Below, one piece after another: positions 60,747-63,397 of a stretch of 64,000 bases of DNA (the stretch's first letter is position 1; each line of letters opens with the position of its first letter). Location of the stretch: positions 28,376 through 92,375 of the forward strand of contig JAKVBG010000016.1 in NCBI GenBank assembly GCA_022447605.1, given 5' to 3'. Made by a program: the position numbers and the translations under genes. The DNA comes from Mariniblastus sp. (GTDB lineage Bacteria > Planctomycetota > Planctomycetia > Pirellulales > Pirellulaceae). The notes under the pieces are model-generated. The model made no database searches. It had not been told where the DNA came from and saw only the letters and a list, made by a program, of their open reading frames with translations.

Positions 60747-60904
60747 TCGTTTGGCGCTGACCGTTGGTCCCGTATAGGGAGACGCCCGACAGATCCTGGT
60801 CCATGGCTTCGATCACGGGAGTACCGGGTCGTGCCGCCAAATCGATGTTTTGCTCTATTTTTTTTGGATTCGCAGCAGATTGGAAACATTCTTTTAATGA
60901 CGAC

Positions 60905-60931
60905 TTGTAAAATTGACGAATTCAATATAAT
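60905..60931 (+). promoter_or_regulatory. Candidate sigma70 promoter of tRNA-Asp
   Basis: TTGTAA-N15-TATAAT in an AT-rich patch, 18 nt upstream of the tRNA. Confidence 0.45.
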
Positions 60932-60949
60932 TTCGTATTCCCCTTGAAT

Positions 60950-61023
<74 letters not shown>

Positions 61024-61029
61024 CTGTTC

Positions 61030-61065
61030 AAAGCCTCGTGAACTTTGTTTCACGAGGCTTTTTTT
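61030..61065 (+). terminator. Rho-independent terminator after tRNA-Asp (probably bidirectional)
   Basis: AAAGCCTCGTGAA-CTTTGT-TTCACGAGGCTTT followed by more T. Confidence 0.9.
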
Positions 61066-61117
61066 GGCTCTGCACCCGTTGGTGATCAGAATCGACCCAT
61101 TGCCGGTTGGCCGACCA

Positions 61118-62434
61118 TCATTGACCCGAATCGTGGGTCGGGTCCTGGCTAGGATCGGACGACAAGTCAACTGTGTGGCCCATCTCTTCCATCAATCGCG
61201 TGATCTCCCGGTCGAGCGGTTCCGTGTCCGGACCCATCTGCTTGTAGCGGATGATTCCCTCGGCGTCGATCAGGAAGATTGTAGGCCAGCCCTCGATATT
61301 CCAACGTCTGGAAATGGGTCCGAATTTTCCATCCGGGCCGTTCCAAAAACTGCGCCAAGTCAGGTTCTTCTGTTTGGCAATCTGGCGAATGGCTTCCCGA
61401 TCGCTATCGCTGTTGACACCGACGATGGCAAATGGCTTGCCCGACAGTTTTTCCACGAGCAACTGCTCATGGGGATACATATCCCGGCAGGGGGGTCACC
61501 AGTCACCCCAGAAATCGAGCATCACGATCTTTCCCCGGTATTCTTTCAGGGAAAACGTCAATCCGTCCAGATCCTCAGCCTGGATGTTGGGTGCCGGCTT
61601 TCCAACTTGCAGGTGTTGCAGGGAAAATAGCATGTTGGTCGCCAGCTGGCCGATGTTCTGGGCAGGACGGCCTTGGTTTTTGACACCAAAATCATATTCG
61701 CCATAGATCGATGAAGGATTCAATTCCTGTAGTTTGGATTCCAAATCGAAATTCTGGGTTGCCGATTTCCGGTAAAACTCCAGAGTCGATTTCTCGACAA
61801 ACGACTTCATTCGTTCGGTCCATTTTGGATTATCCAGAAAAACAACGAACCGGAGGATGGCCTGGTGCCCTTTGATATGGGCCATTTTGGCAACGGCCCG
61901 GACACGATTGTGAAGCGAGTTTTCGGCAAGTTGTTCCATCAGTTGCATGCTGGCTGGGTCGGGATACCCTTCGACCAAAACGGGTAACACGTCAGCAATC
62001 GGTTCGGTCTCGATGTAATCCATTCGAAGCAGTTCGATCGCGGTGCGGAAGTTCGGTCCGCTGGGCACCTCTTTCAATATCCACTGGATCGCTGCGAGAT
62101 TGCCCCGGTCGCCTCGGTTGTCCTGAATAATTTCGATTAACCGCGAGGCATAAACTTCCGGGTCCGGAGCAAGCATCTCCGTTTTTCCCCGTTCATCCTT
62201 TGCCTGGCCGGTAACAGGAGCCTTCTTTGGCCTCTGGTCAAATTGGCGTTGATGGTCTCTGTAGGCTTGAATCACCTCCGCCAGTTGTTGGCTGGTTGGC
62301 TGGACCTTGACGACGGGCGCGTTGCCTCGATCACGTTCCTGAGCCTTGGTTGACTCTGGTGGGGAAGAGGGTTGGCAGGAAAGGGCCGATAGGAGCAGCA
62401 GACAGCCGAGAGAATAAATCGGTAGGCGGTTCAT
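61118..62434 (-). CDS. Exported TlpA/redoxin-family thioredoxin-fold selenoprotein (UxxC), about 438 aa
   Basis: ORFs 61496-62551 and 61118-61480 are in the same frame and separated only by the TGA at 61498-61496: LDFWGDW-(TGA)-PPC-RDMYPHE...GWPTIFLIDAEGIIR; likely start MNRLPIY at 62434. Confidence 0.85.
61453..61495 (-). promoter_or_regulatory. Candidate bacterial SECIS hairpin(s) downstream of the Sec UGA
   Basis: GGGAT-ATGT-ATCCC starting 11 nt after UGA; CCATGAGC-AGTT-GCTCGTGG at +24 to +43. Confidence 0.5.
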
Positions 62435-62578
62435 GTTGGGCTCTGTGATCCGGGAAGGGGCGACACTCAAAAACGGAGCAAGTCGATTTGCTGATGATTG
62501 TACCGGTCGGATGCCGGCACGGTGGCCAATCGCACCAAGAAATTCGGACAAGAAACGGGCCTTTTTCCCGGGAAAGCT

Positions 62579-63397
62579 TCAGCCGGTCTTGGCGGAACTG
62601 GCAGCAAGCCCGGGCAATTCCGGGCCGACGGTCGCCAGCGGCTTCCCAAAATTGATCAACTCCAGGGTTCCATTCTGGTGTTCCACCAGGAACGACTCGT
62701 TTTCAACCCAGTCACCCAAGTTGATGCTCAGAACTCGGTCCTGTTGACTGATACAGGGTTGGTGAATGTGTCCGTACACAAACCCATCACAGTCCCGTTT
62801 TACCGTTTCCTCGATCAGGCGTTGTCGAATGGATTCTGGGCGGGCCATGAACCATTTGAAGAAACGCCTGATTTGATGACACAGTTTGGTAGGGAGAACC
62901 CACAGGATTCGATCGAAAATGCGGCTTCCCCAAACCGAAAGTCCCTTGGTCCGTTTTTCGACATTGTCGAAAAGGTCGCCATGAATCACAAGCAGACGTT
63001 TACCGGAACCGGTTGTATGAATGGTGTCTTCGGCCCACGTGAATGTTTCCAACTGATTGCCTATGGCAGAAAAAATCGGTTCGTGTTTCGGACAACGGCG
63101 CTCGTTCTTGAAGTCGGGATGGCGAAGGAAATCGTCATGATTGCCGGGGAGCAATACAATTTCACAACCGGCCAATTGCATTTCAGACAGTCGCTGGAGA
63201 ACCTGCTGGTGTTCTGACGGCAAAAACCAGCGGTGCATCAGGCGCCATCCGTCGATCGTATCACCAACCAGGTAAAGCCGTTCCGGTTGGATTTGCTTGA
63301 GCAGTTCCAGGCAAGCGGTGGCGTTGGACAAGCGAAAACCGAGATGCAGATCGCTGATGAAGACGGCACGGCAGTTCTGCAGGTCGTGTTTTCGCAT
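62579..63397 (-). CDS. Calcineurin-like metallophosphoesterase (UDP-2,3-diacylglucosamine diphosphatase LpxH-like)
   Basis: ISDLHLG, VGDTIDGW, GNHDD, HGDLFD, GHIHQP, NLGDW. Confidence 0.9.
   Translation of the reverse strand: MRKHDLQNCRAVFISDLHLGFRLSNATACLELLKQIQPERLYLVGDTIDGWRLMHRWFLPSEHQQVLQRLSEMQLAGCEIVLLPGNHDDFLRHPDFKNERRCPKHEPIFSAIGNQLETFTWAEDTIHTTGSGKRLLVIHGDLFDNVEKRTKGLSVWGSRIFDRILWVLPTKLCHQIRRFFKWFMARPESIRQRLIEETVKRDCDGFVYGHIHQPCISQQDRVLSINLGDWVENESFLVEHQNGTLELINFGKPLATVGPELPGLAASSAKTG

Follow-up and report, generated by a model that had tools for sequence, protein, structure and literature searches.

Does the in-frame TGA that cuts a putative redoxin gene of Mariniblastus sp. (Planctomycetota; Pirellulaceae) into two open reading frames (ORFs) end translation, or is it read as selenocysteine (Sec)? 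The gene in question lies on a stretch of 64,000 nucleotides (assembly GCA_022447605.1, contig JAKVBG010000016.1, positions 28,376 to 92,375), which was analyzed as a whole and is referred to as the window in the following, position 1 being its first letter. Based on the evaluation of this locus and its relatives, the region 62434-61118 on the minus strand is very likely one gene, encoding a 438-residue exported protein of the TlpA/ResA type with Sec at the attacking residue of its active site, inserted via UGA313. The UGA that splits the gene almost certainly encodes selenocysteine, and the gene is a real selenoprotein of an already known bacterial kind, routinely cut in two by gene callers.

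Translation table 11 yields two minus-strand ORFs in this region, the first comprising 351 amino acids (aa; 61496..62551) and ending with ...VMLDFWGDW at the TGA, the second comprising 120 aa (61118..61480) and starting at an internal Met. Translation with TGA=U from the ATG at 62432-62434 results in a single frame of 438 codons plus a terminal TGA (61118..62434, minus strand), which reads ...VMLDFWGDW-U313-PPCRDMYPHE...GWPT.... This start codon gives an N-terminal signal peptide, as in the orthologues L023, L053, and L054, and the terminator of the gene is itself an ordinary TGA (61118-61120). The in-frame TGA (61496-61498) occupies the position of the first Cys in a CxxC motif of TlpA/ResA type, with translation and the homologue column defining the active site U313-P-P-C316 (61487..61498). 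The cis-proline loop G-W-P-T (residues 382-385, 61280..61291) follows 66 residues downstream of LDFWGDW-U313-PPC316; alignment A1 shows no variation at P384 and T385 and hardly any at W383. An initial annotation, made from the sequence alone, had placed a gene split by the ORF caller at 61118-62434, read LDFWGDW-U-PPC across the TGA and followed the frame to GWPT; coordinates and reading proved exact and the split was reproduced. It had further judged Sec recoding likelier than a nonsense mutation landing on the catalytic Cys, a view that is supported by the conserved TGA column, the Sec machinery, and the SECIS (selenocysteine insertion sequence) hairpin presented below.

The split could be taken at face value, with the TGA as a genuine terminator, a 312-residue helical N-domain protein as product, and the redoxin part either untranslated or made from the internal Met. 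Gene callers predict exactly these two pieces, and some truncated product is expected in any case, as Sec decoding competes with release factor 2, more so at scarce selenium. However, translation from the internal Met would yield a product devoid of the U/C-x-x-C motif, the first beta-strand, and the signal peptide, and yet both the motif and the whole domain show in-frame conservation. The Cys-form paralogues each consist of one full-length protein with this two-domain architecture, and termination would leave SECIS and Sec machinery without a role. Being the best surviving of the alternatives, genuine termination is still very improbable.

Extension of the analysis toward a read-through homologue search in 40 related genomes revealed dozens of homologues that each contain a single in-frame TGA, next to others that lack one. 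At each fetched locus, the TGA takes the place of the first Cys within F-W-G-x-W-[U/C]-x-P-C; the resulting set comprises 101 different Sec forms as well as 20 Cys forms, the latter with TGC or TGT at the Sec column, an agreement far beyond chance. UGA and UGC/UGU alternate at exactly the active-site column, the pattern that the initial annotation had suggested to look for among homologues. Likewise, its counter-scenario of a genome devoid of Sec machinery with close relatives carrying TGC or TGT is not what the data depict, since the four closest orthologues keep the TGA (the orthologue group of the window being L022, L023, L053, and L054). The genome itself harbors six UGA forms, i.e., five paralogues beside this gene with the same TGA and hairpin, as well as several Cys forms. 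Alignment of 30 full-length relatives showed P315, C316, H322, W378, P384, and T385, among others, to be invariant after the UGA, which indicates that the downstream part is translated and under selection. Almost all Sec forms have G-D-W-U, compared to G-H-W-C in the closest Cys clade. On the level of single residues, the position two before the active site (G-D-W, 61499-61507) is occupied by Asp in 95 of 102 Sec forms; within the closest Cys clade, 11 out of 14 FWG-motif Cys forms read G-H-W-C and one G-N-W-C. This difference may reflect a tuning of selenol versus thiol, or simply clade history.

The UGA is followed by a hairpin, CCAUGAGC-AGUU-GCUCGUGG (61453..61472, apical loop 61461-61464), assigned by folding and conservation and covering nt 27-46 as counted from the U of the UGA. 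It consists of an 8-bp stem and a 4-nt loop with G at loop position 2 followed by U, has a minimum free energy (MFE) of -13.1 kcal/mol, and starts 23 nt after the UGA, resulting in a UGA-to-loop spacing of 31 nt. These values fall within all four published criteria of the bacterial SECIS (bSECIS) model (loop 3-9 nt, stem 4-16 bp, G in the first two loop positions, 16-37 nt UGA-to-loop, MFE <= -7.5 kcal/mol; PMC13188914 Fig. 2). At the corresponding site, 100 of the 101 Sec forms and none of the 20 Cys forms contain the core GAGC-NGUN-GCUC. The third-codon positions within the hairpin (nt 30, 33, 36, 39, 42) have an entropy of 0-0.24 bits versus 1.5-2.0 bits at neighbouring third positions. A within-genus control gave 0-0.26 bits for the third positions of nt 30-42 in 23 Sec forms versus 0.86-1.84 bits in 14 Cys forms, with the flanking third positions being alike in the Sec and Cys forms of this relatedness-matched set. 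Synonymous sites frozen in Sec forms only show selection on RNA level, acting only where the UGA is present.

In comparison to the SECIS of E. coli fdhF, the paradigm of a SelB-binding hairpin, the structure is likewise intragenic, located just after the UGA, and equipped with a small apical loop containing G-U. In contrast, its G-U is found at nt 36-37 instead of 23-24, no bulged U is evident, and the loop reads AGUU. The apical loop of fdhF is GGUC, the same tetranucleotide as the consensus of the family studied here, with G23 and U24 contacting SelB.

A nonsense mutation on the catalytic Cys codon of a dead or dying gene would equally interrupt the frame under table 11, and decay of single copies is possible within this family: the UGA-form copy L154 (G012:C18:64700-67500) has a 1-nt deletion in the hairpin loop (GAGCGG-CGCTC), shifting the frame 13 codons after the UGA. 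Decay of this copy or an indel from long-read sequencing would explain the deletion; another copy of genome G012, L153, is intact. Against a pseudogene stands the TGA column, kept in about 100 homologues across many families of the phylum, together with invariant downstream residues, an open frame, a retained cis-Pro loop, and a conserved hairpin beside every UGA. On sequence level, conservation effectively refutes this explanation, and we assign it a negligible likelihood.

Sec insertion further depends on the corresponding machinery, which was examined applying curated cut-offs to the assembly (203 contigs, 94% complete). A tRNA-Sec was detected with 68.7 bits (RF01852, gathering score 47) and classified by ARAGORN as tRNA-SeC with anticodon tca. 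All three protein components scored above their curated cut-offs, namely selA (TIGR00474, 573 bits), selB (TIGR00475, 377 bits, whole-length match), and selD (TIGR00476, 271 bits). The selABCD set, predicted by the initial annotation to exist elsewhere in the genome, is hence in place. Beyond this genome, selA was above cut-off in 30 of 41 relatives; it was found in all four out-of-genus genomes with UGA forms, and none of the five out-of-genus genomes without selA had a credible UGA form. The selD of the window's genome (G000:C160:164144-165052 (-), L020:1393-3594) lies within a 733-aa frame and is fused, with an N-terminal pyridine-nucleotide-disulfide oxidoreductase domain (Pyr_redox_2) preceding AIRS/AIRS_C. 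A similar frame of 773 aa is found in G007, and the unfused selD of G012 carries an in-frame TGA, which makes it a Sec form itself.

Bacteria are known to read through stop codons with near-cognate tRNAs, and UGA is reassigned in some lineages; suppression or an altered code might hence turn the codon into Trp, Cys, or Gly. In this genome, however, TGA is the commonest stop, closing 1043 of 2300 long open frames, this gene included, which rules out genome-wide reassignment. A tRNA-Sec with anticodon UCA is present alongside selA, selB, and selD, the UGA aligns with Cys as the usual counterpart of Sec, and the SelB-type hairpin occurs only in UGA forms, leaving decoding as another amino acid scarcely credible. 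The weakest alternative, a sequencing or assembly error in a 203-contig draft with a true codon TGC or TGT, can practically be dismissed, as TGA is carried by the independent assemblies of the closest orthologues L023, L053, and L054 and about 100 others, recurs with the hairpin in five more paralogues of the genome, and marks the end (residue 305-312) of all 11 orthologue clusters in public protein collections. Cys forms are deposited there as full-length “redoxin domain-containing protein”.

With the UGA read as Sec, the gene product would begin with a signal sequence with lipobox, followed by a flexible linker and a helical-repeat domain of ~190 residues, and end with a thioredoxin-fold domain. 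The latter (redoxin domain, residues 261-417, 61184..61654) was delimited by Pfam, PDB profile matches, and Foldseek. Pfam matches at residues 276-406 comprise AhpC-TSA (70.7 bits, cut-off 26), Redoxin (67.5, 26.6), and Thioredoxin_8 (57.5, 27), i.e., the redoxin-domain families PF08534/PF00578/PF13905 of cd02966 type. A profile of the family searched against the PDB matched TlpA/ResA/DsbE-type structures only, including 2lrn, ResA, and TlpA, exclusively within residues 250-413 and with E-values down to 5e-23. In the AlphaFold2 model (30-sequence alignment; predicted local distance difference test (pLDDT) score 86, predicted template modeling (pTM) score 0.78), W312-U313-P-P-C316 directly follows the strand 303-309 and opens the helix 314-317, and Foldseek aligned the fold to 4nmu, 3gl3, and 1st9 (ResA, DsbE) with template modeling (TM) scores of 0.87-0.88 and root-mean-square deviations of 1.7-2.3 A. 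A peroxiredoxin (AhpC/Prx/BCP) was considered and rejected. The hallmark of peroxiredoxins is a peroxidatic Cys in PxxxT/SxxC context; here, DFWGDW-U-PPC corresponds to the thioredoxin-type WCxxC, no PxxxTxxC precedes the U, and the best structural matches are reductases.

The N-terminal domain (residues 47-236, 61727..62296) was confidently modeled by AlphaFold2 as all-helical when folded alone (pLDDT 90), resembling an alpha-solenoid or HEAT-like repeat. The helical N-terminal domain of about 250 residues described in the initial annotation is thereby confirmed, the helical-repeat part comprising about 190. Neither Pfam (above cut-off) nor a PDB sequence search gave a match for it, and fold comparison stayed without a significant result (best E = 0.1, TM <= 0.44); HEAT_2 weakly matched 7 of 30 members. 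Assignment of the domain was consequently rejected beyond a generic alpha-solenoid resemblance, there being no significant relative, and the domain is far less conserved than the redoxin domain. Residues 1-20 (62375..62434) read MNRLPIYSLGCLLLLSALS-C20, in line with the signal peptide that the initial annotation had reported. This N-terminus resembles a lipoprotein signal with the lipobox-like end ALSC and a probable role as lipoprotein anchor, the criterion being a signal peptide that ends with [LVI][ASTVI][GAS]-C. A heuristic assigned a signal-like N-terminus to 71 of the 84 full-length Sec forms and a lipobox to 32 of these 71.

ResA (Bacillus), TlpA (Bradyrhizobium), and CcmG/DsbE (E. coli) resemble the protein in fold (Foldseek TM 0.71-0.88), position of the W-C-x-x-C-type motif, cis-Pro loop, and probable extracytoplasmic membrane or lipid anchoring. 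These are Cys-based reductases, whereas the protein of the window features Sec as nucleophile and an additional N-terminal helical domain of about 250 residues. It is likely to work like the ResA/TlpA/DsbE enzymes and is a member of none of these families. The likeness to these enzymes provides the basis for the proposed mechanism. Following the known bacterial pathway, SelA and SelD would make Sec-tRNA, and SelB carrying Sec-tRNA(Sec) would bind the hairpin at nt 27-46 and deliver Sec in place of the release factor. By homology to ResA, TlpA, and CcmG, the mature protein would act as periplasmic thiol-disulfide reductase, in which U313 attacks the disulfide of the substrate and C316 resolves the mixed intermediate, forming an internal selenenylsulfide that a CcdA/DsbD-type membrane protein would reduce again. 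The helical N-domain may, speculatively, select the substrate or a partner, and the Cys paralogue on contig G000:C193 might serve as selenium-independent counterpart. The DsbD_TM family (CcdA/DsbD-type) has a single match in the genome, located at G000:C120:18882-19514 (+) (L157) in an open frame of 739 aa, much longer than CcdA; its product could supply the exported redoxins with electrons.

Several observations weigh against the reading as an exported TlpA/ResA-type selenoprotein. The stem of the SECIS hairpin shows one-sided G-U changes only and not a single two-sided compensatory pair. Covariation was accordingly dropped as proof, and support for the SECIS comes from conservation and frozen synonymous sites instead. 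In addition, the loop is GGUC almost everywhere in the family and AGUU in the orthologue group of the window, with the invariant G and U retained. Four metagenome-assembled genomes (MAGs) of the genus contain UGA forms and no selA match: G006 has selB and tRNA-Sec, G004 has tRNA-Sec, and in G007 (80% complete) and G012 (75%) selD was detected and neither selA, selB, nor tRNA-Sec. On the functional side, NCBIfam scores remain below cut-off (ResA NF002854 76.5 vs 170, TlpA NF047696 57.2 vs 230, DsbE TIGR00385 57.9 vs 123 bits), so that the exact physiological role is not transferable from these enzymes; substrate and electron donor are proposed by homology, and the role of the poorly conserved N-domain is conjectural. 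Export with lipoprotein anchoring is probable on heuristic sequence grounds; ALSC20 fits only a loose PROSITE-type lipobox pattern while many paralogues have canonical ones (LTAC, LASC, VAGC). Finally, the gene stands alone, flanked by a metallophosphoesterase gene and a convergent tRNA-Asp; these neighbours, along with a gene for a DUF481 protein, provide no clue to its function.

How widespread is this type of gene? We screened 401 genomes drawn evenly from the phylum with the pattern TGG-TGA-NNN-CCN-TGY-N18-GAGCNGTNGCTC, using the reversed pattern as control. The pattern was found one to six times in 66 of the 401 genomes, distributed over 49 of 288 genera; the reversed pattern was found in none of the 401. 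All named relatives are Planctomycetota MAGs, the closest being labelled Mariniblastus or Pirellulaceae, the others Planctomycetaceae, Gemmataceae, Isosphaeraceae, and Brocadiaceae. In the genome of the window, two UGA-form paralogues are arranged head to tail about 1.2 kb apart (G000:C1:380257-382521 (-), L042/L044). Tandem pairs of this type are frequent, with further ones in G062, G136, G181, G297, and G372, pointing to tandem duplication as the way of expansion. Two loci from Planctomycetia MAGs (L076:653-2932 and L082:778-2121) combine two Sec-redoxin domains in one frame, each with its own UGA and hairpin, and are candidates for double-Sec, double-domain proteins.

A tree of 120 redoxin domains requires three changes between Sec and Cys and places a Cys clade among the Sec forms. 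In the free tree, this 12-member clade (FWGHWCPPC, one member per genome of the genus) is located inside a Sec-rich group. Reversions from Sec to Cys are called rare in bacteria, and we do not claim one here, as the approximately unbiased (AU) test does not reject a single Sec clade (p-AU 0.64), with the constrained tree being 10.5 log-likelihood units better. One SECIS-acquiring conversion, followed by duplication and spread, is sufficient to account for the Sec forms. More tentatively, and with a clearly lower likelihood than the reading of the single gene, the data can be interpreted as traces of a phylum-wide, multi-copy periplasmic Sec system, in which a Sec-redoxin module, duplicated often in tandem and kept decodable by a near-invariant SECIS matched to the SelB of the lineage, would be combined with fast-diverging helical-repeat adaptor N-domains to form a selenium-based disulfide-reduction network. 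If true, such a system in the largely aerobic Planctomycetota would be contrary to the tendency, stated in section 10 of PMC13188914, of aerobic bacteria to retain selenoproteins only rarely.

The initial annotation had called the gene a hidden selenoprotein. This holds with regard to annotation; the implied novelty does not, because the UxxC redoxin/TlpA type is already catalogued (PMC2398784, PMC13188914, PMC4807772). A recent review lists a class “Redoxin family protein (PF08534, UxxC)” in its Table 1 (PMC13188914, 2026), and the Global Ocean Sampling (GOS) selenoproteome contains “Prx-like 3 (pfam08534, UxxC)” and “Prx-like (UGC-containing)” (Zhang & Gladyshev 2008, PMC2398784). Compared by description, the catalogued UxxC redoxin and Prx-like 3 entries share with our protein the PF08534/PF00578 redoxin domain, Sec as first residue of UxxC, Cys homologues, an origin from marine bacteria, and a status as computational prediction only. 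As far as these descriptions extend, the entries are silent on a signal or lipobox and a helical N-domain, on one to six copies per genome in Planctomycetota, and on a frozen GAGC-GGUC-GCUC SECIS. The ResA-like WAxxUGC selenoprotein family NF041054 has in common the TlpA/ResA-like fold, the active-site Sec, and the type of an exported thiol-disulfide oxidoreductase, but the motif of the window is WGDW-U-PP-C (UxxC) instead of WAxxUGC, and a score of 33.8 bits against a cut-off of 300 shows that the protein is not a member.

Within the same phylum, Kim et al. 2016 (PMC4807772, table S9) listed split genes of planctomycete P1 from Porphyra as selenoprotein candidates, under the names “thiol-disulfide isomerase-like thioredoxin” and “AhpC/TSA”, with bSECISearch identifying no SECIS for the two thioredoxin-like candidates. 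These resemble our case in phylum, protein type, annotation as two adjacent genes, and Cys in the closest homologue, a likeness by description, as names and gene identifiers are what PMC4807772 provides. Our literature search, whose coverage lay outside subscription journals, found no paper on a Planctomycetota-wide expansion.

Regarding the surroundings of the gene, the convergent tRNA-Asp(GUC) is encoded on the plus strand and was the sole match of an Rfam scan of 60900-62600 under the E-value threshold applied. The region 60950-61061 also includes, behind this tRNA gene, a strong 13-bp terminator hairpin (61030-61061), at which transcription arriving from either side might end. No Sco/Cox or cytochrome-c-maturation gene context was found within the window.

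A crude genome-wide bSECIS scan, insensitive to the extent of missing four of the six redoxin family members, pointed to a second family (G000:C138:41059-42408 (+), L162:1501-2850). The 450-aa protein contains EKCGGGG-U86-GGG[ST]C (here CGGGG-U-GGGSC) and carries HEAT repeats at its C-terminus. In 20 of 24 genomes of the genus, we found full-length homologues interrupted by a single in-frame TGA. The motif is conserved, and the hairpin downstream of it has a GGUC-type loop and a stem in which compensatory changes affect both sides. At the aligned position of the U, full-length “hypothetical/HEAT repeat” proteins of Rhodopirellula and Neorhodopirellula have an invariant Cys. No NCBIfam or Pfam family covers CGGGG-U-GGGSC, and the motif was not seen in the motif table of the review PMC13188914. 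Judged by these alignments, it is a candidate for a second, uncatalogued Sec/Cys family, distinct from the redoxin finding. Two further TGA-interrupted frames remained unsupported as selenoproteins, having no homologues in the relatives searched. One is a transmembrane-anchored redoxin-like ORF with DLWGDW-U-PRV, without the resolving Cys and on a 2-kb contig (G000:C91:521-1351 (-), L160; no homologue in any of 40 same-genus genomes); the other ORF resembles a lipoprotein and reads GCGGGC-U, with Cys-rich repeats thereafter (G000:C134:24508-25035 (-), L159:309-836; no homologues in 40 relatives). Both carry a SECIS-like hairpin.

The knowledge of Sec decoding as such is unchanged by this finding. 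As a consequence of orthologues being stored as fragments that end at the UGA, the catalytic half of an exported redox family is invisible in Planctomycetota genomes, even though a simple DNA pattern recovers one to six copies in about one sixth of the sampled genomes of the phylum without any control match. Taken at the level of sequence comparison, the gene would add a well-supported case of extracytoplasmic selenocysteine in marine heterotrophs. The co-occurrence of Sec forms and one Cys paralogue in the same genomes provides a natural comparison for what selenium gives to a thiol-disulfide reductase.

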